IMG/VR virus record: IMGVR_UViG_3300042890_006166
Span: 62,670 to 126,669 of that record
Origin: a virus
Reading direction: 5' to 3' (one strand)
DNA length: 64,000 bases
Below the pieces are notes generated by a model that worked only from the letters and a program-made list of their open reading frames with translations, ran no database searches and was not told the DNA's origin. This document shows, one piece after another, positions 3,910 to 64,000 of this stretch. The stretch's first letter is position 1, and the number at the start of each line of letters is the position of its first letter. The position numbers were made by a program, and so were the translations under genes.

Positions 3910-5346
3910 ATGTGTGGTATTTTTATTAATATAGACGGGGAAACCTCGAGATTAAATTCTATGTCACATAGAGGTATAGAATCAAATACGATTGAAAGAG
4001 ATGGAGTTTTTTTATCCCACACTAGACTTCCAATCCAAACAGAAGAAGGGGATGGGTGGAAACAACCAATTGAAATTTCACCAGGGATTTTCTTGCTTTA
4101 CAATGGTGAGATCTTTAACTATGACACCACAGTCTTTGGTTCAGACATAGAATATCTTTGTCAAACATTTGCCCCTTGGAAGGGAGGATCTTTCCAAATG
4201 TTTTGTTCTTTGTTCGTTCCTAGAATTCAAACCTGGGATGGATTTTGGGCGATAGCTATCTATGATTCCAAATCTAAAGACATTATTTGTTTTACCGATC
4301 CGCTTGGGAAAAAATGTTTATACACCAACGATGATGGCGAGCTAGCTTCCGAAATAAAGGCGGTTCAACATTGGTTTAGCCCTCAAGATTCACATTTCAT
4401 TTCGACAGTTAGAAAATTTGGATATGTAACCGACGATTCAACCCCCTACAGAGACGTTAAAAGAATTTTACCCAACACGATTTATTATTACAATTTGGAA
4501 GTTCCCGGTTTTAAATCTACTTACTCTAATTATTATAGAGGATTTAACTTCCCAATTGAAAATCTAACACCCGGAGATTATGAAGCTCACATGGAGTGGC
4601 TGTGGGCAAAACTTTTTGAATCTGTTCAAAACAGATTAATTTCTAAAAATTATCCTATTTCACTACTTGTTTCTGGTGGTTTAGATTCATCTATCATTGC
4701 TGGGATCTTATCACAAATGTCTCCAGAGGTAAAATGGTTTTCTATAGAAAATGGAGAATCCAAGTTTGTTAAAATCCTGTCTGAATTTTACCAAAAGGAT
4801 GTTAATTTTTTGGAGTACAACATGGATGAGTCTAAAATTAAAAAAATCTATCAAAAATGGAATGAAAGCCCTATTGATTTGGGTTCAGTAGTACCTCAAT
4901 TTTTTCTCTTTGAATCGGTTAAAAATCAAGGAAATTCTAGAATTGTTTTAAGTGGAGACGGAGCAGATGAACTTTTCGGAGGTTATTCAAGAATTCACGA
5001 GTATGATTCCCAGTTTTCTGATATATTCGATGAATTGAGATTTTACCACCTTCCCAGATTGGACAAGCTTTCAATGGCACACACATTGGAACTTAGAAAT
5101 CCTTTTTTACACCTTGACATAGTTCGATTTGCTTTACATCTACCAAGAGAATGGAGAACAGATAAAAAAATTCTGAAAGATACATTTGGGCCTCTACTTC
5201 CCTCTGAAATTGTGGATCGTCCTAAAGAGGCTTTGAAAAATCCAAAAATCAAAGAGAACAAATTGAAGTATCGTCAACAGGCAGTTGACCTTTTTCTTGA
5301 AGTTGAACAAACCGAATCATTTTCAAAAGTAGAAGTAGATATATAG
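3910..5346 (+). CDS. asnB: asparagine synthetase B-like glutamine amidotransferase (Ntn GATase + PP-loop synthetase)
   Basis: MCGI N-terminal nucleophile, HRG, YNGEIFNY, SGGLDSS PP-loop, SGDGADELFGGY and DKLSMAH..E.R.PFL motifs. Confidence 0.9.
   Translation: MCGIFINIDGETSRLNSMSHRGIESNTIERDGVFLSHTRLPIQTEEGDGWKQPIEISPGIFLLYNGEIFNYDTTVFGSDIEYLCQTFAPWKGGSFQMFCSLFVPRIQTWDGFWAIAIYDSKSKDIICFTDPLGKKCLYTNDDGELASEIKAVQHWFSPQDSHFISTVRKFGYVTDDSTPYRDVKRILPNTIYYYNLEVPGFKSTYSNYYRGFNFPIENLTPGDYEAHMEWLWAKLFESVQNRLISKNYPISLLVSGGLDSSIIAGILSQMSPEVKWFSIENGESKFVKILSEFYQKDVNFLEYNMDESKIKKIYQKWNESPIDLGSVVPQFFLFESVKNQGNSRIVLSGDGADELFGGYSRIHEYDSQFSDIFDELRFYHLPRLDKLSMAHTLELRNPFLHLDIVRFALHLPREWRTDKKILKDTFGPLLPSEIVDRPKEALKNPKIKENKLKYRQQAVDLFLEVEQTESFSKVEVDI
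5338..5345 (+). promoter_or_regulatory. putative phage late promoter GATATATA
   Basis: Exact copy of a motif found 17-27 nt upstream of seven starts in this window; here 17 nt before the GTG at 5363. Confidence 0.6.
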
Positions 5347-5362
5347 AAAAAAAGTCTACCTA

Positions 5363-6085
5363 GTGAAAATTCAAAAAGTTCAAAATTTCGACGAATTTAC
5401 TTCCAAAAAAATAAACGAAGCAAACGATTCATTTTTTTCCTTCGATTTTTTAGGAAATCTATTTACAAAAGGATTTGATGCTTTCACCGATGTACTGAAA
5501 GGAAAGGTTACTGCCCATATTTTTGAATATTTGGGGATTGGAGAGGGATCAATTCTTTCCAAATTGGTACAAAACTTTGTTGAAACTATCCCAGTAAAAG
5601 ATTATTATGCCATTTTATTCAAAGGTAAAATTAGTGCTCCATATTTGGCTCCTAAAGCAGCACAAGCAACAATTGAATTTTTAATAGAAATGGGGCCAGA
5701 TGGAATAGCAAAAAATTTAGGAATTACCGATACCAACGGATATTTATACCGAACAATTTCGGAGATGCTCACCAACGAAGTTACAAAAAAAGATTTCTCA
5801 AAAAAATTAGAAAATTTCTATCTTTCTATGTTTGGTGGATTACCAGAAACTTCTGCAGAAGATTTTAAGAAATCGCTTAATCCCCAGGAAAAAACGAAAA
5901 TAGAAAATGAATTGGCTGCAAAAGCCAAAGAAAAAGGCATTCCCACAGAAAACCCTAAAGAAAAAAACACAATGTTGGACAACTTCTTTTCTAATTTAGG
6001 ATCAATGAACCAGGCAAACCCAACCCAAATCGGTAACACATCAGGGGAGGATTTATTCACGACCCTTCTTCAACCAAAAAAATAA
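5363..6085 (+). CDS. hypothetical protein, putative internal head protein
   Basis: GTG start; N-terminus 'KVQNFDEFTSKKINE' resembles T4 capsid-targeting/cleavage leaders. Confidence 0.7.
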   Translation: MKIQKVQNFDEFTSKKINEANDSFFSFDFLGNLFTKGFDAFTDVLKGKVTAHIFEYLGIGEGSILSKLVQNFVETIPVKDYYAILFKGKISAPYLAPKAAQATIEFLIEMGPDGIAKNLGITDTNGYLYRTISEMLTNEVTKKDFSKKLENFYLSMFGGLPETSAEDFKKSLNPQEKTKIENELAAKAKEKGIPTENPKEKNTMLDNFFSNLGSMNQANPTQIGNTSGEDLFTTLLQPKK

Positions 6086-7923: not shown

Positions 7924-7957
7924 TTGAGTCAGCCCTAAAAAGGAAAATGGAGTTGAC

Positions 7958-7965
7958 GATATATA
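7958..7965 (+). promoter_or_regulatory. putative phage late promoter GATATATA
   Basis: Exact motif 19 nt before the ATG at 7985. Confidence 0.6.
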
Positions 7966-7984
7966 AACAAAGTAATTGTCATAC

Positions 7985-9398: not shown

Positions 9399-10049
9399 AT
9401 GTACATGGGGTGGCTAAAACGTATATTCAATAAATCAAAAAAAATGAATTGGAAAGACAAAAGTCTAGAGGAAATACAAAATTTTTTTCAAACAAAAGAT
9501 TTTCAATGGTTGAAGGGAGATCAGATGGGAAATATCGAGAAATTCAAATCCATAGAAAAAGACGAATCTACAGGTTTAATTTTCATTTCATTTCGCTCTG
9601 GTGGAAGAATGAACGTGGAATTGGTTCAAGAATATATGGATGTTTTCCCTTCACAAAATATAGATTTCAATGCTGTTGCTACCTCCAACCCGCATACTCC
9701 TACACAAACCAAGCCTGATATTTCATCTCAACCCAACAAGAAAACCAACTCTGTTTCATCTGTACAGCTTTCCGAATCTCCGATATATAGCTTATTGAAG
9801 AAACAAAAAACAAATTGGGTTAACGTGAACATCACCTTAAAATTGAATCTACCTTCCAAGAATTTGTATGGGGTTCTTACCACTTCTTTCGAGGAAGCTG
9901 ACCGTGAAATTGTGAACTTCGTGACGGAAGGGATCGACATAGATGATATCAAATCCGCTTTGGGAGATTCTATTTTGGCGTATTACGACAAGAAAAAAAA
10001 TCTAGTTTCTTCTGATAAATTTTTAGACCAAGTAGAAGATGGACAGTAA
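9399..10049 (+). CDS. hypothetical two-domain protein (start may be ATG 9444)
   Basis: 216-aa ORF with two globular-looking segments joined by a Pro/Thr/Ser linker; A-rich leader before 9444. Confidence 0.7.
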   Translation: MYMGWLKRIFNKSKKMNWKDKSLEEIQNFFQTKDFQWLKGDQMGNIEKFKSIEKDESTGLIFISFRSGGRMNVELVQEYMDVFPSQNIDFNAVATSNPHTPTQTKPDISSQPNKKTNSVSSVQLSESPIYSLLKKQKTNWVNVNITLKLNLPSKNLYGVLTTSFEEADREIVNFVTEGIDIDDIKSALGDSILAYYDKKKNLVSSDKFLDQVEDGQ

Positions 10050-10944: not shown

Positions 10945-11277
10945 ATGATTGATTGTTTGGCAGAGATTAAGATTTTTCTAGCTAAATGTTCGGCCAAAGA
11001 AGCCAAAAAAAAATTTGATGGCGGGATTGACTTTTCCGTGATAGATATTGGTAAAATTATTCGGGATTTAGGTTACAATAACTTAGATTTAAGTAAAGAA
11101 TCTGAATTTATCATCAATTATACTATTCAAAGAAAAATAGACCAGGGGATATATAATACAAAGAACAACACCATAATGATCGTACACAAAAATCTTTCAA
11201 ATGATTTTATTTCTAATTTAAATTCTTTTTTAAAGGAATACGAAAATGAATTTGAATTTTCGATCGAGATGTTGTAA
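10945..11277 (+). CDS. hypothetical protein
   Basis: 110-aa ORF starting 1 nt after the previous stop. Confidence 0.65.
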   Translation: MIDCLAEIKIFLAKCSAKEAKKKFDGGIDFSVIDIGKIIRDLGYNNLDLSKESEFIINYTIQRKIDQGIYNTKNNTIMIVHKNLSNDFISNLNSFLKEYENEFEFSIEML

Positions 11278-13864: not shown

Positions 13865-15367
13865 ATGGCGGCCGATCAAATCATCATTAATAATGTTGCC
13901 AGAACCAGTATTCAGCTGGATCAGTTGGCTGTTCCGAATAGAACCGGAGGAGACAACCAAGGTTTAGATGACGCCTTAATGGACGCCGATGATAAATCTT
14001 TCGGCGGATATAAACCTGTTGTTTTTATTAATGGTTATTTTGTAGACAAATATTTATCTCATTTAGAATTGGACATGTCTGGTTTTTTGCCAGAAATAAG
14101 ATTCCAATTTTCTATGGAAAATCCCATGTTCCTCAGTGTTAATTATCCTAAAGATGGTGATATTGTATCTGTTTATTTTCGAAGCTGGGTTTCAGTTTAT
14201 CGACCTTTGAGAATGGACTTTAATATCTTAACCGTTAAATCCGGCGTTTCTGGTAATTCGGAAGGCAATGGAATTACATTTAATATTTTGGGTGAATGTC
14301 GAATCCCTGCTTTATATAATGAGGTATCTAAGGCTTTTAGAAATTCCACTTCTTATGATGTCTTATTTCAAGTTTCTCAAGATTTAGATTTAGGATTTTC
14401 TACGAATGAAACGGAAGTAATAGATAACATGACGTGGATTTGTCCTAATATGTCATACTATGATTTTATCCGGGAGGTTGTATCAAGGTCTTACAAAGAT
14501 GATAGAAGTTTTTTTACGTCTTTCATAGATTGTTATTATAATCTCAATTTTGTAAATCTAAACAACCAAATTTCGACATCTGATGTTGTACAGGAATGTC
14601 GGGTTGTTAGGGGTTCTGCTACCGGAACATCAGACGATACTGCTTTCCCGAAAAGTGAATTATCAGAGCAACAGATTCCTTTGGTTCTTAGTAATGAAAA
14701 AGGAAATAGCGATTTGCCAACCTATATACAGGGTTATACTTTGATTTCGAATGCAGGAAACATCACCAACCATCAAGGATACATCCACGAAGTACAATTT
14801 TGGGATGAGGGCCTGGTCACGGAAAATGAAATTGAAAAGTACATAAGGTACACAGTTGAAACAATAACAACAGAGAGCGTAGGTGAGAACATGATCCTAC
14901 AAAGGGGCAGGGCAAAAGAAAAATTATACCAAAGAGAATTCCGAAAAAATTGGTATGGGATTTTAAATAATTTCCAGGATGGTGGAGTACATGAAAATTT
15001 TATTCAGGCACTAGTTCAAAATGAAATTAACAATGATGATATAAGGAAATTCACATTGAGAGTTGAAACCGCTTCTTATTATGGTGGAATATACAGGGGA
15101 ATGGCCATTCCTGTTTTTATCTACGTAAATGATCAAGGGAAAAGAAAAGAAAATACAGGATCAAACAACAACCAAAATCCAGAGCAGGACATTAATCCAG
15201 TCTTAGATCGATTTCTTTCTGGTATTTACATTGTTATGGGAATTAAGGTTAATTATGAATCTTATAGAGGAATTTACATGCAACTTGATTTATGTAAGAG
15301 AGAATGGATTTTAAATAGTGCAGGTCAATTCCCCAAAACATTCCCAATAAATCTTATTACTGGATAA
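13865..15367 (+). CDS. baseplate hub protein (T4 gp27/P2 gpD/Mu gp44-like)
   Basis: 500 aa between gp53-like and spike genes; alternating beta/alpha hub pattern with C-terminal 'FLSGIYIVMGIKVNY....YMQLDLCKREW'. Confidence 0.6.
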   Translation: MAADQIIINNVARTSIQLDQLAVPNRTGGDNQGLDDALMDADDKSFGGYKPVVFINGYFVDKYLSHLELDMSGFLPEIRFQFSMENPMFLSVNYPKDGDIVSVYFRSWVSVYRPLRMDFNILTVKSGVSGNSEGNGITFNILGECRIPALYNEVSKAFRNSTSYDVLFQVSQDLDLGFSTNETEVIDNMTWICPNMSYYDFIREVVSRSYKDDRSFFTSFIDCYYNLNFVNLNNQISTSDVVQECRVVRGSATGTSDDTAFPKSELSEQQIPLVLSNEKGNSDLPTYIQGYTLISNAGNITNHQGYIHEVQFWDEGLVTENEIEKYIRYTVETITTESVGENMILQRGRAKEKLYQREFRKNWYGILNNFQDGGVHENFIQALVQNEINNDDIRKFTLRVETASYYGGIYRGMAIPVFIYVNDQGKRKENTGSNNNQNPEQDINPVLDRFLSGIYIVMGIKVNYESYRGIYMQLDLCKREWILNSAGQFPKTFPINLITG

Positions 15368-15370
15368 ATA
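15363..15370 (+). promoter_or_regulatory. putative late promoter variant GATAAATA
   Basis: Close to the T4 late consensus TATAAATA, but only 5 nt before the ATG at 15376 and overlapping the upstream stop. Confidence 0.3.
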
Positions 15371-15375
15371 CAATC

Positions 15376-17736
15376 ATGGGAATCCAGGCTACAGACAGAA
15401 ACAGAAATTTGTTCCTGAAGGGATTTAGACTTTCAGATCAGGGCAAAAATGAAGATCCTACTTATTTGGGATTCAAGTTTGTCTTTGATTTTGGAGTATT
15501 GCCAATCAATCCAGATTACGGTTGGGCACCTAGTCCTTTACTGAGAATCCCTAATTATACTGCCGGAAATGGAGCTGGTATGGCTTCTGGACTTGAAAAT
15601 CCATTTGGGCAAGATGCCTACAATCTAGGTGGTCCAATCTACTATTCCACCTTCAATTATTTGTTGGAAAGAGAAGGGGGTTTCTTGGTCGGTTCTAATC
15701 AAACCAAAAGAGCTAATGCTTTGCGTCAATTTCAAGTTTTATTGGCTAACATCAACAACAATTCGCCTTGGTTTTTTCAATCCATTGATGGTCTTGATAA
15801 GTTAGAGAAAATTGCCAGAACAGGGTTTCAAGACGAAGCAGGATTTGACAATTTCAATCCTCAAAAAACCGATGGAAAAACTTTAACGATCAACTGTTTG
15901 GAATCCCTAAATCTAAGAATTTCTGCATTGGCCGATTTGTATGAAACAGCCATGTTCGATGCTGACAATATGAGATGGTTAGTTCCTAGAAATCTAAGAA
16001 AATTCACGATGTACATTTTCGTGACGGAGATTCGCAATTTTTTTAAAACCTCAAGATTGACCGGATCATCAACAGTTCTAGCTTCTTTGGATAATTTGAC
16101 GAATGTTCTCACAACTAATCGAAATCCTGGTTCTAATATTCAAAATTTAGGAATAGACGATCCCATCGAAAATTTATCAGGGAATCCAGGAAACTCTTTC
16201 ACCTCTTTTGCATCAAACGTTTTTGGTCAATCTGGATTGCAAAATGATGTTCAGGCTTTTCGTAATCAGCAGGACCAAAGTGGCATAAAACCTGTTTTTA
16301 TTTACGAGTGCCATCAGTGTGAATTTGATTTCAGTTCCAGTACACCTTTGGCTTCATCTATAGACATGGGAAGCTCTTCGGCAGATTCTTTAATGGCAAA
16401 ACAAAGTTTCAAGATTCACGTGGGAAAGGTTAGAATGAAGAATCAATATCCCAATATTAGAAACGACAAAAAACCTTTGATCCTGGCTGATGGTGCCTAT
16501 CAAGATCGAACCTCGGTCCAAACTGCTGCTTTAACGTTGGAAACAATTGCCAGCCAAGCTAATGAATTGATTACAAATTTCACTTCGGCAGCAATTAACG
16601 ATCTGGTGAATGAAGGAATTAATCAATTTGTGAATCCCGCTTTAAGTGGATTAAACCAATCTTTACTTGGAAACATTTATTCTTTTAATCCTTCACAAAT
16701 TGGCCGATTGGTTACACCCAATGGATTTAATTTCAACGATGCCCAGAATTTTCTCAATGGGGCGGCATCAACCGGAATTGATAATATCTTTAAGGGTAAT
16801 TTACCTAACCCACAAAAGGTTGGCCTCGGTGGACCTCCGGAACGAGCATATCCACCGATTTCTCCCCCACAAGATGTTTATCCTAGAGTTCCTGGCACCG
16901 ATTTAGGAACACCTTCTAGAGTTTATCCACCCCCGGGAGGAGACGTTTATAATTCTGTCCCTGGATCTGATTTAGGTGTACCAGACAGAGTATATCCGAT
17001 CCCTACCGGAGATGCTTATAACAACGTTCCTGGTTCAGATTTGGGTGTACCCGATAGGGTTTATCCAAATCCAGTAGGGGATGTTTATACAGATGTTCCG
17101 GGCTCAGATTTGGGTGTACCAGATAGGGTTTATCCAAATCCAGTGGGTGATGTTTATGCCGATGTTCCTGGATCTGATTTAGGTGTCCCCGACAGGGTAT
17201 ATACACCTCCAGGTGGAGATGTGTATGACAACGTACCAGGTTCAGATCTGGGATCTCCCGATCGGGTGTACCCGCCACCGGGCGGGGACGTGTACACGGA
17301 TGTGCCCGGGAGAGATCTGGGTGTACCAGATAGGGTTTATCCCACAGATCCTATTGGAGACATTTATTCTGGGGTACCTGGACCTGATTTGGACGTTCCA
17401 GATAGAGTGTATCCTATTACAAGTGATGATGTTTATACCGATACTATTTTTCCAAACACACTTCCTAGAGAACAAGTTTATACTCCTAGTACTTTGTCAA
17501 ATGTGGCCGGAGAGCTAAGATCTGTAGAAAATTCTTTTACCCAACCTCCTGGATCTGTCTATCAGGCTTCCCCACCCCGGCCAATGCAAGGGGGACTGGG
17601 TGATGTATATCCGCCTACGGTTGGAGATTTTATTGTAGAACCCCCTCTGAACTTAGGCAACATGAAACCTTCTACTAAATTCAATCCTAGTTTAGGTAAG
17701 TTCAATCCTACTGAAGAGATAGAAGACGAACAGTAA
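15376..17736 (+). CDS. tail-tube-fold (gp19/gp54-like) protein with C-terminal 23-aa Pro-rich repeats
   Basis: N-terminal half has a tube-like pattern (KTLTINCLESLNLRISALADLY...RKFTMYIFVTE...FIYECHQCEFD...FKIHVG); C-terminal PGSDLGVPDRVY repeats. Confidence 0.5.
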   Translation: MGIQATDRNRNLFLKGFRLSDQGKNEDPTYLGFKFVFDFGVLPINPDYGWAPSPLLRIPNYTAGNGAGMASGLENPFGQDAYNLGGPIYYSTFNYLLEREGGFLVGSNQTKRANALRQFQVLLANINNNSPWFFQSIDGLDKLEKIARTGFQDEAGFDNFNPQKTDGKTLTINCLESLNLRISALADLYETAMFDADNMRWLVPRNLRKFTMYIFVTEIRNFFKTSRLTGSSTVLASLDNLTNVLTTNRNPGSNIQNLGIDDPIENLSGNPGNSFTSFASNVFGQSGLQNDVQAFRNQQDQSGIKPVFIYECHQCEFDFSSSTPLASSIDMGSSSADSLMAKQSFKIHVGKVRMKNQYPNIRNDKKPLILADGAYQDRTSVQTAALTLETIASQANELITNFTSAAINDLVNEGINQFVNPALSGLNQSLLGNIYSFNPSQIGRLVTPNGFNFNDAQNFLNGAASTGIDNIFKGNLPNPQKVGLGGPPERAYPPISPPQDVYPRVPGTDLGTPSRVYPPPGGDVYNSVPGSDLGVPDRVYPIPTGDAYNNVPGSDLGVPDRVYPNPVGDVYTDVPGSDLGVPDRVYPNPVGDVYADVPGSDLGVPDRVYTPPGGDVYDNVPGSDLGSPDRVYPPPGGDVYTDVPGRDLGVPDRVYPTDPIGDIYSGVPGPDLDVPDRVYPITSDDVYTDTIFPNTLPREQVYTPSTLSNVAGELRSVENSFTQPPGSVYQASPPRPMQGGLGDVYPPTVGDFIVEPPLNLGNMKPSTKFNPSLGKFNPTEEIEDEQ
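16891..17450 (+). repeat. coding tandem repeat, 69-nt unit (PGSDLGVPDRVYPxPxGDVYxxV), about 8 copies
   Basis: Units start at 16891, 16960, 17029, 17098, 17167, 17236, 17305 and 17377. Confidence 0.95.
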
Positions 17737-18406: not shown

Positions 18407-21232
18407 ATGTCAATAATTCCTAAGTGTTTAACTGATGATCAGATTGATAATTTCGTAAATAATGTTAATAAAACATCTGACGAAATTTTAGGTGAAAGTA
18501 AATTTAAAATTCCCAACCCGGCATTACCTGGCCTTGGCTTATTGGTTAAGTTACAAATCAAAATTTTTGAAAAATCTATTTTGGTGAATTTTCTTCCAAT
18601 TATAAAAGGGAAACAAATTTTAACAGAAGCTTTCACTAAATTGAGAGTTTTAAAATTCATCAGGGAAAGGACTGAAGAAGTTGCAGAATTGTTACGAAAT
18701 CCAATACAAACACTTTTAAACCAAGCGGTAAATATTCCTTTAGCACAAGATTTTCCGTTTCCAGTTGCCTTGCTTTTTGGAATTAGAACTTCTAGTGGAG
18801 ATATACAGAATCTAATAAGTGACATAAACACAGTAGGTAACGATGTTCAATCTGTTAATACATTGTTAAACTACAAAATAGAATTTGATTCTATTTTGGA
18901 TCCACCCCCAGGATTGATCACCTCTCCTGATAGATCACCAGATAATCTTCAACAAATGAAAGTTAATTTCACGAGTGAATCTGGCGAAAGGGATTCTCCT
19001 TTGTTATTTCTAAAACCTGGTGATTATTTTTCACTTGATTTTGAAAACTTTACCAATACATATCAAGTTTCAGAAATTGAAATACAAACTAATTTCATCC
19101 AATTATTTTTTCAGCTTCAGGCAACTTCTTCTCCTTCTTTCGTATCACAACAAGAAAAAGTTTTCGTTCCTGGATTCTCCTCCGTTTCTCTCAGAATTTC
19201 TAGAAAAATTTCATTAAGACAATTCCTGAATGAACAGGGAAAATTAATAATTCCTCTTACGGCATTTGGTATTAGTTTACCTATATCCTTAGAATTGGGA
19301 AATTTCGATAGATTGAGCGAAACGAATCCAACTTACAAATTTGTTAAGAAATTAGAGGCGGAAACCAATTTGGATTTCTCAAAAGTTCTTAGTGATATGA
19401 TCGATGGAATTTTCCCAGTTATCGATTGGGAAGAAATACAAAAGGATCCCAGATTTAGAAGTTCACAAGAGGACTCCAAGTTAGAAATGATAAACCTGGC
19501 TCGTTTAATCCAAATCGGAACGGATAATCCTTTGTTTATGATTCGAATGATTTTGAATTATCTGAAGTTACTGTTGCTACCAATAGAGGTCGTTGTTTCT
19601 GTATTTAAAACAATACTTTCTCAAATAAGTAACCCAATTTCTTTAATCAGAATTATTTTTCTAATTATTTCTAATCCTTTGAGATTTTTATGTGACATTA
19701 TTTCAGATGCTTTTTTGAAATTCCTGAGGGTATATTTAGAACCTCCTTTAGCTCCTTTGATTCAGTGGAATGAGCTAGTTCAAGATCCTGTTGATAGAGG
19801 AAGAGGTTTAAAACCTTTGTTTTCTGATTTGATTTGTGGAAGATTTAAAAACAAGTTGGCAAATTACAATCCAGATTCTAATTTTTTCGTTCAAGAATCA
19901 GCCAAATTAAAAATCCCACCAGGAGAAAATCCAATTGTTCAATTAAGTTATAATTTGACACAGAATCCCATTCCAGATCTAGGAGAAGTAAGTTTGCAAT
20001 CACCAATCTTAAGTCAAAATACATCGATGAGATTTAGCACAATTACTGACACTGTCGAAAACGGTCTTGCCTATTTGACTTCCCTAGGGATTGGTGACAC
20101 CTTTTATCTTAGCTCTAATGGCCAATTTCAAAATTTTAGGGTTTCAGGAAAAAATCTAATTGAAAATAACAACCAAACTTATTTTGAATATTTAGTACAA
20201 CCGGTGAATGTAACCGAAGTTTATGCCACCCAAGAAAATCAACAGCTCCAATCCGCCTTCAACGGTATTGTTTCGGATCAATTTAAAGCATCAATCAGTG
20301 TAAACAATCCAAATAAAACTTTTTTGTTTATTTTAGAGCGTTACTTGCCAATGAAGGCCATAGCCGCCTGGGAAAGCATAAAGGGAATTTTTTCTATTAC
20401 AGTGGCTCTTGCCTCCGAAATACCTTCTCTTATTCCTTTATGTTTTAAATGTATATTTTCTGGAAATAGAAATACTCAACAAACCCCATCTTCTCTGACA
20501 CAAGAGGGTTCTTCGGATTTTCTTCAAGGTTTTATTTCTTCTTTGGACATTGAATTAGACCCAGATAGAAGAAATTTTGGTGAGTATAAATCCGGGGAAG
20601 GAAGAGAAGCCTCAGAAGAATTCTTTCGGGAAATTCAATTAAAAGAAATTAATCCAGGAAGTCCAGGAGGGTCTGAAAAAACACCCAACACGGAAGGGGG
20701 AATTCAAGAAGTGTTTTTGGATTTACAAAAAGCAAGGCAAGCAGAGGGAAAATCAACTCGTGTTTACAGATCAAATCTTCCTGTCGAATTTCAATCTAAT
20801 TTCAGATGGGATTCTTTAACACTGAACCAAATAGGAGAAAATCTGAAAGTTTTGTCTAGAGTTGCATATGAGCTTTCCTTTAGGGCTACAAGTAGTAGTC
20901 AAGAAAACTCAAATACTATCATAGATTTCTTAGCTAGTCTAAATCCTCTTACTTCTATTGCAAATGATATCAGAAATGAAAGTCAAAATGAATTGGTAAA
21001 CAAATCTATTCCTATTACAGTTTGGGCTTTAACGGAGAACGGCGAAAGCGAATTCAAGATAATTAACAATGGACCACTGTACCAATCCTTTTTGGATTAT
21101 TCTTTTTTTACAAAATACGATCCAGAAATTGAAACCACGGAATTTAGATTTAAAGCTAGTCAAGTGAGATACTATGTTAATTTTAATTTCAGATTTGCTA
21201 AAGATATTTTGCTTCCTGCTTTGAGAGACTAG
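18407..21232 (+). CDS. large putative virion protein with hydrophobic helices and a duplicated beta-domain
   Basis: 941-aa ORF directly after the spike gene; function not recognised. Confidence 0.7.
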   Translation: MSIIPKCLTDDQIDNFVNNVNKTSDEILGESKFKIPNPALPGLGLLVKLQIKIFEKSILVNFLPIIKGKQILTEAFTKLRVLKFIRERTEEVAELLRNPIQTLLNQAVNIPLAQDFPFPVALLFGIRTSSGDIQNLISDINTVGNDVQSVNTLLNYKIEFDSILDPPPGLITSPDRSPDNLQQMKVNFTSESGERDSPLLFLKPGDYFSLDFENFTNTYQVSEIEIQTNFIQLFFQLQATSSPSFVSQQEKVFVPGFSSVSLRISRKISLRQFLNEQGKLIIPLTAFGISLPISLELGNFDRLSETNPTYKFVKKLEAETNLDFSKVLSDMIDGIFPVIDWEEIQKDPRFRSSQEDSKLEMINLARLIQIGTDNPLFMIRMILNYLKLLLLPIEVVVSVFKTILSQISNPISLIRIIFLIISNPLRFLCDIISDAFLKFLRVYLEPPLAPLIQWNELVQDPVDRGRGLKPLFSDLICGRFKNKLANYNPDSNFFVQESAKLKIPPGENPIVQLSYNLTQNPIPDLGEVSLQSPILSQNTSMRFSTITDTVENGLAYLTSLGIGDTFYLSSNGQFQNFRVSGKNLIENNNQTYFEYLVQPVNVTEVYATQENQQLQSAFNGIVSDQFKASISVNNPNKTFLFILERYLPMKAIAAWESIKGIFSITVALASEIPSLIPLCFKCIFSGNRNTQQTPSSLTQEGSSDFLQGFISSLDIELDPDRRNFGEYKSGEGREASEEFFREIQLKEINPGSPGGSEKTPNTEGGIQEVFLDLQKARQAEGKSTRVYRSNLPVEFQSNFRWDSLTLNQIGENLKVLSRVAYELSFRATSSSQENSNTIIDFLASLNPLTSIANDIRNESQNELVNKSIPITVWALTENGESEFKIINNGPLYQSFLDYSFFTKYDPEIETTEFRFKASQVRYYVNFNFRFAKDILLPALRD

Positions 21233-21253
21233 CATACAATCGAAGTTTGAATC

Positions 21254-21293
21254 TTGGTTTTAAAAAGATATATAGATGGTCTTTTTAAACCAA
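21254..21293 (+). promoter_or_regulatory. 14-bp RNA hairpin containing the late promoter GATATATA (21267-21274), upstream of the S1 gene
   Basis: TTGGTTTTAAAAAGA (21254-21268) pairs with TCTTTTTAAACCAA (21280-21293) with one bulged T; ends 5 nt before ATG 21299. Confidence 0.7.
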
Positions 21294-21298
21294 AAAAA

Positions 21299-22462
21299 AT
21301 GAAATCATCCAAAAAAATTTTAGTAGAAACTTCTAGTTTCAACTGGGACATTCCCAACAACTTCACGGTAAATCCAAAATTTAAAACCGCCGAGAAGACC
21401 AAAGTTTACTGTCATGAAAGTTATGCTTTGGAATTGTACAATCTGATGACCGGCAGCATGAGCGGGTTTAGAACTTCAAAGGATTTGTCCGCTGGGGGTT
21501 CATATTCGTGTGTTATTTCGGCTTCTGATTCCACCCACGCCTTAGCACAAACAGAGTCTGGGCAAACCATCTATATCGACCTTAAAAAAGAGTCCAAAGA
21601 TGCTGCCAGATTGGGCCTGATGGATGCCATCAACTTTGAAGTGGGCTCGGAAATTCAAGCAGCCGTTCGTCAAATCGCCGGCACCTATTATGGTTCTGTC
21701 GTAGATTGTTACATTCAAAATTTAAAGGCAGAATTTTTCGACCAAATCAAAAAGCAAACCTTAGCATATGAGGCAAGGGTAAAATCCATCAACAAAGGGG
21801 GTTATCTGGTAGATGTCAATGGAGTTGAGTGTTTTCTTCCTGGATCTCTGGCAGCAGCCAACAAGATCACAGATTTCGACTCCTACATTGGCAAGAGATT
21901 TTATGTTATGATCGATGGTTATGTTGCTGCTAAAGACATCTTTGTTGTTTCTTACAAGAAGTATTTACACAAAATCATGGATCACAAGATCCAAGAATTG
22001 GATATGACCAAAAAATACAAGGGTCACGTCACCGGAACTTCCGCCTTTGGTGTATTTGTTGAATGGGAAGAGATTTTCACTGGATTGATTCATAAAACAG
22101 AATTTGAAAATCAGGTCATCGAAGGTTTCAATCCAGGCGATGAGATCGAATTTTACATTAAAGAAATTAAGGACGACAACCGTCTGACTTTGACCTTCGG
22201 GGAACCTCTAGAGAAAAATAAATGGATGTACGAATTGAAGAAAAATGTAGAAGACGGCACCTCAGAACCCATGGATGCCATCGTTAAACACAAAAGAAAA
22301 AATGGTGCCTTAATTGAAATTGGAGACTCTGGCCAGCTTGCTCTTGTTCCACAGGAAAAACTGGGCAAGAATTCCAAAAATCTCCAGGCAGGAGATACCA
22401 TTCGGGTTCAGGTCTATCAGGTAGATCCATTGGCCGGAAAAATATACGCTAGTCAGGTCTAA
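21299..22462 (+). CDS. rpsA: ribosomal protein S1 (bS1) homologue / multi-S1-domain RNA-binding protein
   Basis: S1 OB-fold repeats 'ARVKSINKGGYLVDVNGVECFLPGS', 'GHVTGTSAFGVFVEW...GLIHKTE' and 'AIVKHKRKNGALIEIG...ALVP', plus a degenerate N-terminal copy. ATG 21299 preferred over TTG 21254. Confidence 0.85.
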   Translation: MKSSKKILVETSSFNWDIPNNFTVNPKFKTAEKTKVYCHESYALELYNLMTGSMSGFRTSKDLSAGGSYSCVISASDSTHALAQTESGQTIYIDLKKESKDAARLGLMDAINFEVGSEIQAAVRQIAGTYYGSVVDCYIQNLKAEFFDQIKKQTLAYEARVKSINKGGYLVDVNGVECFLPGSLAAANKITDFDSYIGKRFYVMIDGYVAAKDIFVVSYKKYLHKIMDHKIQELDMTKKYKGHVTGTSAFGVFVEWEEIFTGLIHKTEFENQVIEGFNPGDEIEFYIKEIKDDNRLTLTFGEPLEKNKWMYELKKNVEDGTSEPMDAIVKHKRKNGALIEIGDSGQLALVPQEKLGKNSKNLQAGDTIRVQVYQVDPLAGKIYASQV

Positions 22463-23853
22463 TGAATTCACACTTCGACAAATATCAGGCCCTTTCATCA
22501 TCCGTTCTAGGATTCGAATTTGAATTCTTTTCCGAGATGGTGAGAGGCCGAATTGTCGAATCTCTTTCTAAGCTGCTTGGAAAAAAGGTTATTTTGTCCG
22601 ACAAATATCATTCTAAAATTCCAGTCAGCGCCGATAGTTTCAAGCTAGAACCAGACTATTCCGGAGGAAGCAAAATGAACGAGCTAATCACTGGACCCAT
22701 GTCATATGGAGAAGCCATTCCGGTTTTAATCAAAGTTTTAAAATGGATTGAAGCCAATGGTTGGACCACGGATCGGTGTGCTTTTCAATTTTCTATTTCT
22801 TTCGATCCTCACGACAGAAAATTAGAAAAAATGGAACGTTTGGATCGTATGAAATTTATTTTAGGAATTGATGAAGGTATAGTTTATTCGTCATTTGGAA
22901 ACCGAACCAATAATGTGTATGCCAAATCTCTAAAGAAGATCGTACCAGTCAACAAATTTTCAATTTTAGAAAACATCACCACGATCGATCCAAAGTTGTT
23001 TAAGTTGCCTGGAGAGAAATATTATGGAGCAAATTTTACCAAATTACAAGATGGATATGTTGAGATACGCTATCTTGGAGGAAAGGACTACCAAAAGAAA
23101 ATTAATCCTATTTTAGAAGTTACGGATTATGTTACTTTGTTGTTACATGATATCCTATCTGGCAAAAAGGTCTACGGAAAAGAGGACGTCCAAAAATTAC
23201 AGGAGATGATGAGACAGCACACGAAGGTCGTGAGAAGTTTTTCAAATCCTGATTCATTCTTCATGAACTATCCAGATTTTCACGTGTTGGTTGATTTGAA
23301 AGGTTACGAAGAAAATATTAAAACTTATTGGTCACACATTAGGGAAAAAATATTTGATCTAATTGTTGAAGGTGGTATACAGGCTTGTTTTTTCAATTAT
23401 GATACTTCCATTGGTAGATTCCAAATCAAAGATGCCAAAAGCAAAAATGGATTGATTTTAAGGGATGTTGACATTTTTGACAGCATAGTTAAAAACGGAA
23501 AATTAGAGAACTGTAATTTATATGGAACACAGGTAAAAAATTCTGAGATTTATGACTGTAAACTAGTTTTTGGCAACAAGCTCTACGACAGCAAATTTCA
23601 AAATTCCATAGCAGACTATGGAAATTTGCTTGAGAACTGTTACATCGATTGTCCACAGCAGATGGTAGATTGTGAAGTCAAAGGTGGAGTATTGAGAAAG
23701 GCGGATTTAGGAAGGAACTCACTTATTTCCGAACAAACCGAGAAGGTCAAAGATTTCAACGAAATCCGTACCACACGTTTTATTTCAGATTCAAGGTTGA
23801 AAAATTTGAACGACCCAATCGCCAAGATCAAATTTAAAAATATCAATTACTAA
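22462..23853 (+). CDS. putative amidoligase (glutamine-synthetase-like COOH-NH2 ligase) with C-terminal beta-solenoid
   Basis: 'GFEFEF', 'LEPDYSGG', 'ELITGP', 'TDRCAFQFSISF', 'KYYGANF' and 'EIRYLGG' follow the Amidoligase_2 motif order; C-terminal ~5-residue repeats (LENCNLY, VKNSEIYDC, LENCYID). Confidence 0.65.
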   Translation: MNSHFDKYQALSSSVLGFEFEFFSEMVRGRIVESLSKLLGKKVILSDKYHSKIPVSADSFKLEPDYSGGSKMNELITGPMSYGEAIPVLIKVLKWIEANGWTTDRCAFQFSISFDPHDRKLEKMERLDRMKFILGIDEGIVYSSFGNRTNNVYAKSLKKIVPVNKFSILENITTIDPKLFKLPGEKYYGANFTKLQDGYVEIRYLGGKDYQKKINPILEVTDYVTLLLHDILSGKKVYGKEDVQKLQEMMRQHTKVVRSFSNPDSFFMNYPDFHVLVDLKGYEENIKTYWSHIREKIFDLIVEGGIQACFFNYDTSIGRFQIKDAKSKNGLILRDVDIFDSIVKNGKLENCNLYGTQVKNSEIYDCKLVFGNKLYDSKFQNSIADYGNLLENCYIDCPQQMVDCEVKGGVLRKADLGRNSLISEQTEKVKDFNEIRTTRFISDSRLKNLNDPIAKIKFKNINY

Positions 23854-23854
23854 C

Positions 23855-24640
23855 ATGACACTAGAAGAATTGATTCAGGAAATAAAAGATGATTTATCTG
23901 CCAGTTGTGCTTTGCCTTACAATTTGAACGACCAGGAAATCATTAGGATTATCACAAGGGCGAAGGCATGGATGTACGACAACTACCAGTACGCTGTGGA
24001 AAAAAGATATTTTGTTTTAGGTGGAGCTTTTTTCCAAACCCCACAGTTTAGAAACACCCGACAAGTTCAACTCCCAGATAAAATTGTGACAGTCTTCGAT
24101 GTCAGGGAAACCAACGGAAACGGGATTTCTGGCAACCCTGATAAGGACTTTGGAGATTCAAAATTGATTGGATCTGAACTTCTATTGTCTCCTTTTACTG
24201 GAGATAACCTTGTGTACAGAACCGTTATGTATTCTTATTTTGATTTGGCCAAGGCCTATCTTTTGCCTACTTATGCCTTTAGCTGGAACAAAAACACAAA
24301 GAAGCTTACAATTTTGGGTAGGGACCCAACTCCCCCCATTAGGTCATCTTCCCCTCAAAGTAATGCTAGCGGTTACAATCTGACCCAATCTGTTGTTGTA
24401 AGTTGTTTTGTAGCAATTGAAGATTATGAATTGTATAACGACGAATTATTCATCAGATATTGTTTTGCCAAGGCTAAACAATCTTTGGTTAAGGTTCTTA
24501 GCGCTTTCGATTACAACCTTCCAGGAGGAGTTAGAGTTAACACCTCAACTTTAAGTCAAGAGGCTTCTGCAGAGTTACAAGAGGTAATGAACATGATAAA
24601 TGGCGAGAACACCCCATCTTATTTTCTCCAGTGGAATTGA
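23855..24640 (+). CDS. gp13: neck protein, T4 gp13-like
   Basis: 'LEELIQEIKDDL...NLNDQEIIRIITRA' N-terminus and 'LPGGVRVN...L.QEA..EL' C-terminus as in gp13. Confidence 0.7.
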   Translation: MTLEELIQEIKDDLSASCALPYNLNDQEIIRIITRAKAWMYDNYQYAVEKRYFVLGGAFFQTPQFRNTRQVQLPDKIVTVFDVRETNGNGISGNPDKDFGDSKLIGSELLLSPFTGDNLVYRTVMYSYFDLAKAYLLPTYAFSWNKNTKKLTILGRDPTPPIRSSSPQSNASGYNLTQSVVVSCFVAIEDYELYNDELFIRYCFAKAKQSLVKVLSAFDYNLPGGVRVNTSTLSQEASAELQEVMNMINGENTPSYFLQWN

Positions 24641-24652
24641 AAAATATACACC

Positions 24653-24686
24653 AAATTGATATATATGTCAAATATTTTATCAATTT
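24653..24686 (+). promoter_or_regulatory. 9-bp hairpin overlapping the late promoter GATATATA (24658-24665), upstream of the endonuclease
   Basis: AAATTGATA (24653-24661) / TATCAATTT (24678-24686) is a perfect inverted repeat ending 6 nt before ATG 24693. Confidence 0.6.
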
Positions 24687-24692
24687 TTTTGT

Positions 24693-25898
24693 ATGGAAAT
24701 TCTTCAAAAAATCGAATCTTGGAGGGGCAAGCCTGGACAAGCTTTTGGCTCTTATCTTTTTTTAATAAAGACCAATCCCATTTATGTCTCCGATTTGGAA
24801 TCGTTGACTAGTTTTTTAGATTCACATTATCACAAGGAATCCATTTCTATCCAACAGAGATTTTATCACGTTTGGTTCGATTTCTATGAAATCGAAACTT
24901 GTTTTCATTGTGGATCCCCTAGAAAATTTGCTAACATACCGAAGTTTTCTATAGATCGTTATGGAGAAAAACCAACTAACCCTGTGAATTACTACAAAAC
25001 ATGTATGTTAGAAAATTGTTTAAAGAAACACAACAAAATTTCGACCTCACAAAGTTTGTTAAAAAAATATGGGACTAGCAATCCTATGTTAGTACCTGGA
25101 GCGATGGATAAATTGAAAGAAAGCAACAGAAAAAAATATGGAACTGAATTTTTCACTTCTACGGAAGAATTCAAATCGAAAACTAAAAAAACTTTTCAAA
25201 AAAAATATGGGAGGCATCCAACAAGTTTGAAAGAAACACAAGACAAAAAAAGAAAAACAAATTTGGAAAAGTATGGATATGAGAATGCCTTGGATAATCC
25301 GGAAATTAAACAAAAATCGAAAGACACAAACAAACAAAAATATGGGGGGAATTCGAGTATGTGTTCAAACGAGATAAAAGAAAAATCGAAAGAAACTAAC
25401 CGTAAAAAACATGGTGTTGATTGGTATGTTCAAAGTGATGAATTTAAAATTAAATTCAAAGAGACTATGATGGAAAAATATGGGGTTGAGCAGGTGATGC
25501 ACTACACACCTTCTTTTGAAAAATCTCTGGATACATCTTACAAGAAAAAATTATTTGTATTTCCTTTTGGTAGAATCGAGAAAATTCAAGGATATGAATG
25601 TTTTGCCTTGAATGAATTGATTAGCTCAGATTATTTAGAGGAAGATATTATCGTCAACAACAAAGAAATTGAAAAATATACTGGAAAAATTTGGTACTTG
25701 GATTCTGAACAAAAAAAGAGAAAATACTACCCCGATATTTATTTGAAATCTGAAAATAAAATAATTGAAGTGAAATCTGATTATACGTACGATGCTGGAT
25801 ATACTATAAACATCAGAAAGAAAAAAGCCTGTATCAATCTTGGATTTTTATTCGAATTTTGGATTTATGACGAAAAGGGCAACAAAAAAATAAAGTAG
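24693..25898 (+). mobile_element. free-standing putative homing endonuclease gene (KKYG helical repeats + C-terminal PD-(D/E)XK nuclease)
   Basis: CxxC...CxxxC N-terminus, seven ~23-aa '[KE]KYG...' repeats, and 'YYPDIY...IIEVKS' nuclease motif; inserted between gp13 and gp25. Confidence 0.7.
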
Positions 25899-25927
25899 CA
25901 TATTTTTTTGCCTTCTTTTTTCCGCCA

Positions 25928-25935
25928 GATATATA
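25928..25935 (+). promoter_or_regulatory. putative phage late promoter GATATATA
   Basis: Exact motif 19 nt before the gp25 ATG, followed by a GGGAAA-GCAA-TTTCCC hairpin. Confidence 0.6.
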
Positions 25936-25954
25936 AAGGGAAAGCAATTTCCCG

Positions 25955-26326
25955 ATGATAGAAATTTACAACAGAGACCCAGGAGATCCTCAATACAAAT
26001 CCGATGTTTTAGAAACTACGGACCCGATCGAAATTTGTATCGGTCAGCTCAAAATGTTGTTGCTGACAATTAAGGGAGAGGTTCTTGGAGATCCTTCATT
26101 TGGACTTAGTTTAGAGGAATTGGTTTTCAGCCAAGAGCTCTCTCAGAAATCCCTCACTGATGAAATTGGTCGTCAAATTAAAAATTATGTTCCAATTTTC
26201 TATCAGCTTAACGGTTATTTCAATGTTGAATTTTATGCCGGAACTCAGAGGGATATTGCGTATCTAAATTTTTTTATTCCGAGTTACGGAGGTAAAAGTC
26301 CTCTGGTCTCCCTGAAAGTAACTTAA
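25955..26326 (+). CDS. gp25: baseplate wedge subunit, gp25-like
   Basis: 'IGQLKMLLLTIKGEVLGDPSFG' GPW_gp25 motif; 123 aa; precedes a gp6-like gene. Confidence 0.85.
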   Translation: MIEIYNRDPGDPQYKSDVLETTDPIEICIGQLKMLLLTIKGEVLGDPSFGLSLEELVFSQELSQKSLTDEIGRQIKNYVPIFYQLNGYFNVEFYAGTQRDIAYLNFFIPSYGGKSPLVSLKVT

Positions 26327-37715: not shown

Positions 37716-37726
37716 GATATATATTC
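37716..37726. promoter_or_regulatory. bidirectional late-type promoter (GATATATATTC / GAATATATATC)
   Basis: One TATATA core reads GATATATA on + (22 nt before ATG 37746) and GAATATATA on - (25 nt before phoH ATG); flanked by TTTTGA/TCAAAA. Confidence 0.55.
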
Positions 37727-56784: not shown

Positions 56785-57345
56785 ATGGCAATTTTAAACG
56801 CAAGATCCAATTCATTTTACTTCAACTTTCCCAAAGGGTTTTTTCCACCTAGTGTAGAAAATCGATGGATTGATTATTTAAAAAAACAGCCAACCCCTTA
56901 CGACACGATCACCTCCTTCATGAATTCCAGTATTCAGTCGGTGGGGTTCCCTACTATGAGTACAAATCTGGTATCACAGACGAAGAACTTGGGAAAACAA
57001 ATTAACTATCAAAGCGCAACCCCAGTCCAAGATTTATTTACCAGAGATTTCGATGTTTCGTTTAGAATAGGTGAGGGATTTGTAAATTATTTTATCATGT
57101 TGGAAACTGTTTTAGATAAACTAGCTTTCCAGAATGATGACCTATTTACTCCCGTTTTACCTCTTAGAATTTTGAACAACGAAGGAGGAGTAATTGTCTC
57201 GGTTGTATTTAAAGAAGTCAACCTAACGGGGATAAACGGAATCACCTTGAATTACACCCAAAATGCACCTAGTGTGAACACATTCACTGTTTCTTTTAAA
57301 TGTAACTTCATGGAGTTAGACATGGAAGTACAGAAAAGAAACTAG
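56785..57345 (+). CDS. tail tube terminator/completion protein, T4 gp3-like (tube fold)
   Basis: 186 aa; order 'IQSVGFP...FDVSF....NYFIM...LRILNNEG.VIVSVVF....TGINGITLNY....TFTVSFK' parallels gp3/gp19. Confidence 0.55.
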   Translation: MAILNARSNSFYFNFPKGFFPPSVENRWIDYLKKQPTPYDTITSFMNSSIQSVGFPTMSTNLVSQTKNLGKQINYQSATPVQDLFTRDFDVSFRIGEGFVNYFIMLETVLDKLAFQNDDLFTPVLPLRILNNEGGVIVSVVFKEVNLTGINGITLNYTQNAPSVNTFTVSFKCNFMELDMEVQKRN

Positions 57346-57352
57346 ATATATA
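57345..57352 (+). promoter_or_regulatory. putative phage late promoter GATATATA
   Basis: Exact motif overlapping the upstream TAG, 21 nt before ATG 57374. Confidence 0.6.
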
Positions 57353-63900: not shown

Positions 63901-64000
63901 TCCGGAGGTGCAGGTTCTTCCGGAACCTCGGGTTCTTCTGGATCAAGTGGATCTTCTGGATCGTCTGGATCGTCGGGTACCTCCGGAGGAACAGGTTCTT
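57964..64000 (+). CDS. giant proline-free Ser/Thr collagen-like fibre protein with an internal C1q/TNF-like domain (3'-truncated, >2012 aa; absent from the ORF track)
   Basis: GTG at 57964, frame open to the window end: 120-aa N-domain, (Gly-X-Y)286, ~160-aa C1q-like domain (YASYSDSTTQT...SGIYEFSF...FWLRKNG...LLQGDYLEL), then (Gly-X-Y)>=290. Confidence 0.9.
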   Translation, partial: MKKIVIQYISGSQTLATSFELDTLSEIIAVENGVYLYFTTVYNSGPLTASRFYYGTVVYITKTGQGYDLYQQCIQAIGDVVTDPISNEGILDFTWDPGVTVIFSNMSGDSSGGGTGGSSSGSSGTSGSSGTSGSTGTSGSSGTTGSSGTSGTSGSSGTSGSDGTRGTSGTSGSSGSSGTTGSSGTSGSSGTSGSDGTSGTSGSSGSSGTTGSSGTSGSSGTSGSDGTSGTSGSSGSSGTTGSSGTSGSSGTSGSDGTSGTSGSSGSSGTTGSSGTSGSSGTSGSDGTSGTSGSSGSSGTTGSSGTSGSSGTSGSDGTSGTSGSSGSSGTTGSSGTSGSSGTSGSDGTAGTSGSSGTTGSSGTSGSSGTSGSDGTAGTSGSSGTTGSSGSSGSSGTSGSDGTSGTSGSSGSSGTTGSSGTSGSSGTSGSDGTSGTSGSSGSSGTTGSSGTSGTSGSDGTSGTSGSSGSSGTTGSSGTSGTSGSDGTSGTSGSSGSSGTTGSSGTSGSSGTSGSDGTAGTSGSSGTTGSSGTSGSSGTSGSDGTAGTSGSSGTTGSSGTSGSSGTSGSDGTSGTSGSSGSSGTSGSSGTSGSSGTSGSDGTSGTSGSSGSSGTTGSSGSSGSSGTSGSDGTAGTSGSSGTSGSSGTSGSSGTSGSDGTAGTSGSSGTTGSSGTSGSSGTSGSDGTAGTSGSSGTTGSSGTSGSSGTSGSDGTSGTSGSSGSSGTSGSSGTSGSSGTSGSDGTAGTSGSSGTTGSSGTSGSSGTSGSDGTAGTSGSSGTTGSSGTSGSSGTSGSDGTAGTSGSSGTSGLDGTFGTSGTSGFDGTSGTSGSDGTSGTSGSSGTSGLDGTSGTSGSDGTSGTSGSSGTTGSSGTSGFNGTSGTSGLDGTFGTSGTSGSDGTAGTSGTDGTSGTSGSSGTTGSSGTSGLNGTFGTSGSSGTTGTSGTSGSSGTTGTSGSSGTSGINGSFGTSGTSGSSGTSGAGIMNYYASYSDSTTQTVTAEDTPTIITYNTVEIENGFSLVSNSRVTPTYSGIYEFSFSPQVQKSQGTNCLMNFWLRKNGTDIIRTDSYIDLVSNSVIQLPFVSIIVELLQGDYLELIFAASTEFGEIVAFPAITTPYVAPAAPSVIVNIKNIGVAAAAYTSTSGTSGTSGLNGTSGTSGSSGTSGSSGTSGGTGTSGTSGSSGSSGTSGFSGSSGTSGSSGTSGGTGSSGTSGSSGTSGGAGSSGTSGSSGTSGSSGSSGSSGSSGSSGTSGGAGSSGTSGSSGTSGSSGSSGSSGSSGSSGTSGGTGSSGTSGSSGSSGSSGSSGSSGTSGGSGSSGTSGSSGSSGSSGSSGSSGTSGGAGSSGTSGSSGTSGSSGSSGSSGSSGTSGGAGSSGTSGSSGTSGSSGSSGSSGSSGSSGTSGGAGSSGTSGSSGTSGSSGSSGSSGSSGSSGTSGGTGSSGTSGSSGSSGSSGSSGSSGTSGGAGSSGTSGSSGSSGSSGSSGSSGTSGGAGSSGTSGSSGSSGSSGSSGSSGSSGSSGTSGGAGSSGTSGSSGSSGSSGSSGSSGSSGSSGTSGGTGSSGTSGSSGSSGSSGSSGSSGSSGTSGGTGSSGTSGSSGSSGSSGSSGTSGGSGSSGTSGSSGSSGSSGSSGSSGTSGGAGSSGTSGSSGSSGSSGSSGTSGGSGSSGTSGSSGSSGSSGSSGSSGTSGGAGSSGTSGSSGSSGSSGSSGSSGTSGGTGSSGTSGSSGSSGSSGSSGSSGSSGSSGTSGGTGSSGTSGSSGSSGSSGSSGTSGGSGSSGTSGSSGSSGSSGSSGSSGTSGGAGSSGTSGSSGSSGSSGSSGSSGTSGGAGSSGTSGSSGSSGSSGSSGSSGTSGGTGSSGTSGSSGSSGSSGSSGSSGTSGGSGSSGTSGSSGSSGSSGSSGSSGTSGGAGSSGTSGSSGSSGSSGSSGSSGTSGGTGSSGTSGSSGSSGSSGSSGTSGGSGSSGTSGSSGSSGSSGSSGSSGTSGGAGSSGTSGSSGSSGSSGSSGSSGTSGGTGS
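58324..60897 (+). repeat. Gly-X-Y block 1 (286 triplets; 81-90-nt higher-order units marked by GSD)
   Basis: GGN every 9 nt from 58324 to 60889; the antisense ORF shows Pro at every third residue, confirming no frameshift. Confidence 0.95.
61384..64000 (+). repeat. Gly-X-Y block 2 (>=290 triplets; GSS/GTS/GG[ATS], uncharged)
   Basis: GGN every 9 nt from 61384 to 63994; runs off the window. Confidence 0.95.

Follow-up and report, generated by a model that had tools for sequence, protein, structure and literature searches.

Probable late promoter boxes within leader hairpins at a subset of genes of an uncultured freshwater T4-like phage: a candidate T4-type gate

In bacteriophage T4, a helix over the ribosome binding site keeps e, soc, 49 and I-TevI silent when these genes are carried on early read-through RNA, and late promoters placed in the 5' strand of that helix give rise to transcripts from which it is missing; I-TevII, I-TevIII, segB and Aeh1 mobE are likewise arranged (PMC3014915, PMC2988022). 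The T4 late promoters themselves are strict 8-bp TATA boxes that start at -13, are read by gp55 and have no -35, and supercoiling favours late transcription (PMC2988020). For T4 genes 25 and 38, the account that PMC3014915 gives of earlier work (Nivinskas 1999; Malys and Nivinskas 2009) describes a 'split' ribosome binding site, in which a stem between the Shine-Dalgarno (SD) sequence and the AUG enhances initiation. Here we analysed the leader of an S1-like gene of an uncultured phage together with the leaders of other presumed late genes of the same family. Judging from their sequences and predicted folds, we lean with modest confidence towards a T4-type promoter-in-hairpin gate acting at a subset of late genes, whose leaders are devoid of an SD.

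The phage and its probable late promoter box

The stretch of DNA analysed, referred to as the window, is 64,000 nt long and forms the second half of a 126,669-bp IMG/VR virus record (G000:C1:62670-126669) with an estimated completeness of 46%. Nearly all genes lie on the + strand. The phage encodes T4-like portal gp20, prohead protease, tail sheath and neck protein, along with baseplate wedge gp25, gp6-like proteins and a head-tail adaptor; genomes of its relatives reach 230 kb and beyond, and near-identical DNA was found in lake/freshwater metagenomes of at least 17 studies. A blastn comparison of window positions 20000-24000 with a phage collection gave no match. The source is an uncultured freshwater T4-like jumbo phage. 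Its leaders are A-rich, G-poor and without an SD (an SD-like tetramer occurs in 6% of leaders compared with 14% in the background), which confirms the A-rich leaders assumed in an earlier note on this DNA. At the far end of the window, positions 57964-64000 hold a + strand open reading frame of at least 2011 codons that is still open at the last base and is made up of TCTTCTGG-type repeats numbering in the hundreds (295 + strand copies of the 8-mer); these repeats encode Gly/Ser-rich triplets and account for the rise in GC content to 0.48-0.52 in this region.

The octamer GATATATA occurs nine times in the window, where 1.9 copies are expected, and all 23 exact copies in the 127-kb contig are on the + strand (23:0), a bias seen for none of its 24 one-mismatch variants. 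Around these 23 copies we saw no flanking conservation and no conserved -35. About 18 of them lie 5-59 nt, mostly 16-32 nt, ahead of a start codon, and four are intragenic. Across five genomes, 98 of 128 copies are non-intragenic and followed within 75 nt by the ATG of a long ORF, most often at a distance of 16-29 nt, and the strand ratios in relatives are 21:0, 8:0, 38:9 and 23:7. The box is found ahead of the sheath, neck, portal gp20, prohead protease and gp25 genes, and it is unchanged in front of orthologues of the S1-like gene (27 loci, 33-96% identity), the neck gene (14 loci) and gp25 (32 distinct leaders). Where a gene is preceded by a canonical terminator, GATATATA is the sole conserved element between terminator and ATG, which speaks for a promoter and against an RNA processing site.

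A matching sigma factor is also present. The ORF at genome 40600-40959 (119 aa) matches phrog_234, 'late sigma transcription factor', with E 1.2e-13, and Pfam Sigma70_r2 with E 5e-4, the latter below the family cut-off. Homologues of gp33 and gp45 were not found in the 46%-complete fragment, and PF02916 (gp45 clamp) was also without a match in control genomes. A literature search on GATATATA as a phage promoter returned nothing relevant. Strand bias, position before structural genes, invariance among orthologues and the gp55 homologue together uphold the earlier proposal of a late promoter, and GATATATA is very probably a box of the gp55 type. Because T4 late boxes are strict 8-bp elements beginning at -13, we read it as the -13 to -6 box; start positions given here are predictions, taken from T4 as the box end +6.

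The tail sheath gene has two boxes in tandem ahead of it, at a distance of 51 nt from each other (genome 24386 and 24437), and both are also present in the related genome G001 (11810 and 11861). Two of the intragenic copies, at 9782-9789 and 11148-11155 (Table 1), may be internal late promoters; an in-frame ATG at 11176 comes 20 nt after the second of them.

Table 1. Promoter boxes, hairpin arms, leaders and genes, in window coordinates
Feature	Position	Strand	Remarks
Leader of 240-aa gene	5319..5370	+	box 5338-5345; stem 5335-5340/5354-5359; outer stem 5319-5325/5364-5370 over GTG 5363
GATATATA	7958..7965	+	19 nt ahead of ATG 7985; no significant occluding stem
Intragenic GATATATA	9782..9789	+	same relative place in G001 (61535)
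Intragenic GATATATA	11148..11155	+	same relative place in G001 (62901)
5' arm of S1-leader hairpin	21254..21268	+	TTGGTTTTAAAAAGA; 3' end overlaps the first two bases of the box
GATATATA, presumed late promoter box	21267..21274	+	predicted start ~21280, where the 3' arm begins
3' arm of S1-leader hairpin	21280..21293	+	TCTTTTTAAACCAA; spans -19 to -6 from the ATG; contains TTTTAAAC
S1-like gene, 387 aa, multi-S1-domain	21299..22462	+	closest to ribosomal protein bS1
Leader of homing-endonuclease-like gene	24645..24695	+	box 24658-24665; inner stem 24653-24661/24678-24686; outer stem 24645-24650/24690-24695
DUF7487 / homing-endonuclease-like gene	24693..25898	+	insertion missing from relatives
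Leader of gp25 (baseplate wedge)	25928..25957	+	box 25928-25935; GGGAAA 25938-25943 / TTTCCC 25948-25953; ATG 25955
GATATATA	37716..37723	+	22 nt ahead of ATG 37746; local stem z 2.1, unconserved in three relatives
GATATATA	57345..57352	+	21 nt ahead of ATG 57374; leader open in all three genomes

Hairpins in the leaders of the S1-like and other late genes

The stem that the earlier note had placed ahead of the S1-like gene, with the promoter box at the top of its 5' arm, is present. TTGGTTTTAAAAAGA and TCTTTTTAAACCAA form 15 pairs, with one bulged U and one U.G, the stem ends 5 nt ahead of ATG 21299, and its minimum free energy is -12 kcal/mol compared with -7.5 +/- 2.2 kcal/mol for dinucleotide shuffles (z -2.0; 7/200). 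Opening the initiation region, defined as -18 to +8 around the AUG, is predicted to cost 10.5 kcal/mol on a read-through RNA and 0.9 kcal/mol on a promoter-initiated RNA starting 6 nt past the box. Chimeras that carry the upstream halves of other promoters need about 3 kcal/mol, and none of 30 reaches the value of the S1 leader (z 4.3 to 6.2). Between gene 18407-21232 and the S1 gene no canonical terminator was found, so that read-through is plausible.

In nine lineages with at least 80% protein identity, which like all lineages compared here are phylogenetically non-independent, 90% of the S1-stem cells are paired. The covariation signal at this stem is thin: there is one compensatory pair (TTGG/CCAA to TAGG/CCTA), seven pairs are invariant, changes from A-U to G·U are frequent, and the covariation score is reached by 23 of 500 shuffles. 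The helix of G001 reaches over the AUG (-26 kcal/mol), and the leader is open in lineages at 61-69% identity; the S1 hairpin is restricted to one clade of the phage family. The sequence TTTTAAAC (window 21283-21290) is kept 9-19 nt ahead of the ATG in most S1 leaders (L001-L035), with or without the hairpin, and may be a leader element in its own right.

The encoded protein is a genuine relative of bS1 with several domains. Among NCBIfam rpsA models, the best score 77-80 bits, where the cut-offs are 524-720; residues 110-385 of the protein can be aligned to rpsA domains, and bS1 entries of the PDB match with E 7e-14. The gene is kept throughout the phage family and also in Lak megaphages; the closest phage relatives of the protein are those of Prevotella Lak megaphages and other huge uncultured phages, with ~31-35% identity over ~290 residues. 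In RNA-library run X20, short contigs cover 21855-22093 and 22320-22551, within the S1 gene and with no start visible, and being contigs these data cannot show 5' ends, nor transcription of S1.

Each leader was compared with chimeras and with the orthologous leaders in the related genomes G001, G002, G003 and G005. In the gp25 leader, a hairpin occupies the space from box end to AUG in 21 of 27 distinct lineages (mean z -4.7), with three to five pair types at several positions, and in 17 of the 27 its 3' arm takes in the first two bases of the AUG, which are thus paired. The 5' arm always starts between -2 and +2 of the box end, so that transcription from +6 would truncate it. At the neck gene (genome 19234, outside the window), all 10 distinct lineages are occluded, with a mean z of 3.4 against chimeras. 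In the outer stems the box forms part of the 5' arm, 0-8 nt separate the stem from the AUG, and the sequence is clade-specific; the leaders also carry a covarying inner hairpin. The neck results come from per-lineage folds and chimera controls, as RNAalifold with MAFFT misplaced the motif and predicted no pairs.

Gene 53938, likewise outside the window, has 11-bp arms around a TATATAN loop in 3/3 genomes (z 3.4 to 7.6). The arms are ATTTATTTGGA in G000, the present contig, and G001, and ACTGGTTTAGA in G002, which are unrelated in sequence and equal in geometry. This region (genome 53898-53940, 8.7 kb ahead of the window; L014:13898-13940) holds the strongest promoter-in-hairpin of the contig, with a TATATAG loop and a stem extendable to ~22 bp (-24 kcal/mol). 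It directly follows DNA-metabolism genes (UvdE, exonuclease), and the apparent start codon of the gene is TTG, or GTG in G002, where the stem is followed by T7 and may double as a terminator.

Two further leaders in the window show weaker or less widespread structure. That of the homing-endonuclease-like gene combines a 9-bp inner stem with an outer UAUACA/UGUAUG helix that pairs AUG 24693 (z -1.8 against shuffles, +2.1 against chimeras), a hairpin known from a single lineage. The gene and its own leader (24641-25927) are an insertion polymorphism: in one contig of RNA-library run X19, position 24640 is linked to 25928 through 37 letters of other sequence, and G001 is without the gene. L038, the only close relative that has it, carries the box CATATATA instead of GATATATA. 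The stem ahead of the gene starting at 5363 is weak in G000, G001 and G005 (z -1.8 against shuffles and +1.5 against chimeras in the window), and the G002 orthologue has a perfect 10-bp stem around the box. Opening costs on long versus short RNA are 13.8 vs 3.1 kcal/mol for the neck gene, 17.1 vs 4.7 for gene 53938, 9.3 vs 2.7 for the endonuclease-like gene and 7.3 vs 1.1 for gp25. The box overlaps the 5' arm at the S1, neck, 53938 and endonuclease-like genes and ends 0-2 nt ahead of it at gp25; the likeness to T4 e, soc and I-TevI drawn in the earlier note, with the box in or abutting the 5' arm, thus stands at several genes.

The geometry does not extend as far as had been supposed. Among the five additional sites listed in the earlier note, it recurs at 24653-24686 and 25938-25953 and weakly at 5320-5369. 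The site at 7954-7981 is not significant (z -0.7 against shuffles, -0.8 against chimeras), and that at 15340-15383 is a chance-level 7-bp stem of other geometry, with a 30-nt loop and no GATATATA (z +0.7). We also rejected a stem at 37716 for its lack of conservation. The leaders of the sheath, portal and protease genes and of genes 37707, 51211, 13284 and 57374 are open across genomes; that of 7985 is open too, G005 excepted. Taken together, leaders with the motif do not differ from others in opening cost (7.1 vs 5.7 kcal/mol, p 0.21). With this class comparison, consistently open late leaders and two of six listed sites failing, we rejected module-wide occlusion, and a module-wide timing system is not supported. 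The arrangement is gene-specific, present at ~5-6 of 18 promoter-bearing genes, roughly a third, and no rule explains which late genes are gated. Covariation across relatives, to which the earlier note had looked, is found at gp25 and the neck gene and, as kept geometry, at gene 53938, and is slight at S1.

These observations suggest the following model. Host RNA polymerase carrying the phage gp55-like sigma would read GATATATA as the -13 to -6 late box, and in sense RNA the sequence 5' of the predicted start would pair with the A-rich leader and/or the AUG. Read-through RNAs from upstream promoters would then form a hairpin over the ribosome landing site and be translated poorly. RNAs from the late promoter would begin inside or after the 5' arm, and so have no hairpin and a short open leader of ~10-20 nt. 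The target hidden in this way would be an SD-less leader with its AUG, not an SD. Candidate gated genes are the S1-like, gp25, endonuclease-like and 5363 genes in the window, and the neck and 53938 genes elsewhere in the contig. Three parts of the gate we infer: where transcription starts, that read-through RNA exists and that translation is affected. Since late expression is probable for the genes preceding S1 and gp25 as well, what looks like timing may really be insulation or dosage.

Alternative readings of the hairpins

The hairpins might instead act on the upstream transcript, terminating it in a non-canonical way, stabilising its 3' end or providing a processing site, and overlap promoters through the crowding of 20-70 nt intergenic spaces. 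Canonical terminators do occur beside late promoters in this phage family, hairpins directly ahead of promoters exist (e.g. at genome 37675), and the T7 tract after the 53938 hairpin of G002 gives it the look of an intrinsic terminator. However, the S1 and 53938 stems fail terminator criteria, and terminator-like matches are at chance level; for the S1 stem, an intrinsic terminator was rejected since the stem is followed by A8, with no U tract, and is absent from the intrinsic-terminator scan. Position also speaks against this reading, as the gp25 stem comes after the promoter box and includes the AUG in the 17 lineages mentioned above, and the neck stems run up to the AUG, whereas a 3'-end element would precede the promoter. 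We consider a role in the upstream transcript unlikely. A rule by which a lineage has either an upstream terminator or an occluding hairpin holds among the gp25 lineages, of which four hairpin-less ones carry strong terminators, but we rejected it as a general rule because a comparison of 77 sites does not bear it out (p 0.12, with the trend reversed). At genome 61215-61305 and G003 118130-118235, a terminator stands before a late promoter and the next A-rich leader is complementary to the terminator 3' arm and U tract, and this complementarity inflates the apparent occlusion scores at such sites. That promoter-embedded hairpins are gene-specific insulators replacing terminators and that the gated bS1 homologue reprogrammes host ribosomes late, in one late-translation circuit, is a speculative extension that we regard as very improbable.

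Alternatively, the stems could be DNA-level features, involved in extrusion or melting around the TATATA core as in N4-type hairpin promoters, or chance products of leaders with 35% GC. Single-site z-scores against dinucleotide shuffles are indeed modest (about -1 to -2), motif-bearing leaders as a class are not more structured, the stem at 37716 combines a z of 2.1 with a lack of conservation, and T4 late transcription is helped by supercoiling (PMC2988020). Against this, folding is better for the sense than for the antisense sequence in 9/9 lineages at S1, in 9/10 at the neck gene and in 18 vs 7 at gp25, the greater stability of the sense RNA being due to G·U pairs. This asymmetry, together with a stem geometry that is kept while the sequence changes among clades, favours a sense-RNA structure over a DNA palindrome or protein binding site. 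Moreover, the gp25 stems lie downstream of the box and not around it, and the presence or absence of a stem is a gene-specific property conserved across genomes. A DNA-level or chance origin thus appears decidedly unlikely. One could also suppose that late transcripts do contain the hairpins, which are melted by the phage S1-like protein or host bS1, so that late translation would depend on the supply of S1 (the feed-forward idea of the earlier note), or that the S1 leader is an rpsA-like autoregulatory operator. The phage does have a multi-domain bS1 relative, which is kept in its family and in Lak megaphages, and TTTTAAAC is conserved in most S1 leaders irrespective of the stem. Yet the 5' arms overlap or abut the box and would be excluded from gp55-type transcripts, some lineages have the S1 gene without a stem in its leader, and for most late leaders, being open, there is nothing to unlock. 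We hold this to be highly improbable, the least credible of the readings considered. For phage S1 as a feed-forward unlocker of late mRNAs we found nothing in support, and nothing links the protein to these hairpins. The S1 hairpin occurs in one clade only, and in the T4-type model an unlocker is needless because promoter-initiated RNAs are already without the 5' arm.

Comparison with known systems

If the T4-type gate is correct, the late-promoter-in-hairpin device of T4 is used far outside the T-even phages, and where there is no SD to hide, covering the A-rich leader and AUG appears to do an equal job. This fits, and does not prove, the view that SD-less initiation needs unstructured leaders. 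The gp25 and neck leaders provide alignable, covarying structures, and an uncultured family of freshwater T4-like jumbo phages is assigned a testable late-promoter consensus, GATATATA.

The E. coli gene rpsA is an autoregulated S1 gene with a structured, SD-poor leader. The S1-like gene described here shares the structured, SD-poor leader, but its lineage-specific 5' arm precedes the predicted start, and nothing points to autoregulation. With T4 gene 25, as portrayed in the account cited at the outset, the phage has in common a conserved hairpin in the gp25 leader; there is no SD here, the stem includes the AUG and the 5' arm starts at the promoter box. As regards the promoters, both phages have a strict 8-bp AT-rich box without a -35, in dozens of copies and before structural genes (PMC2988020 for T4), whereas the consensus found here differs at 4 of 8 positions (GATATATA, not TATAAATA) and all copies in the contig are on one strand.

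The closest match is with T4 e, soc, 49 and I-TevI, and what we propose is the e/soc/I-TevI mechanism in a new phage family, not a new mechanism. Shared with these genes are an 8-bp TATA-like box in or beside the 5' arm, a helix over the initiation region that is predicted only on upstream-initiated RNA, a gp55 homologue and the conservation of the arrangement in relatives; as in T4, one of the candidate gated genes is a free-standing homing-endonuclease-like insertion. The two systems differ in what is covered, here an A-rich leader with its AUG and no SD, and in the genes concerned, which are the S1-like, gp25 and neck genes of an uncultured freshwater phage of at least 230 kb that is known here from sequence alone.
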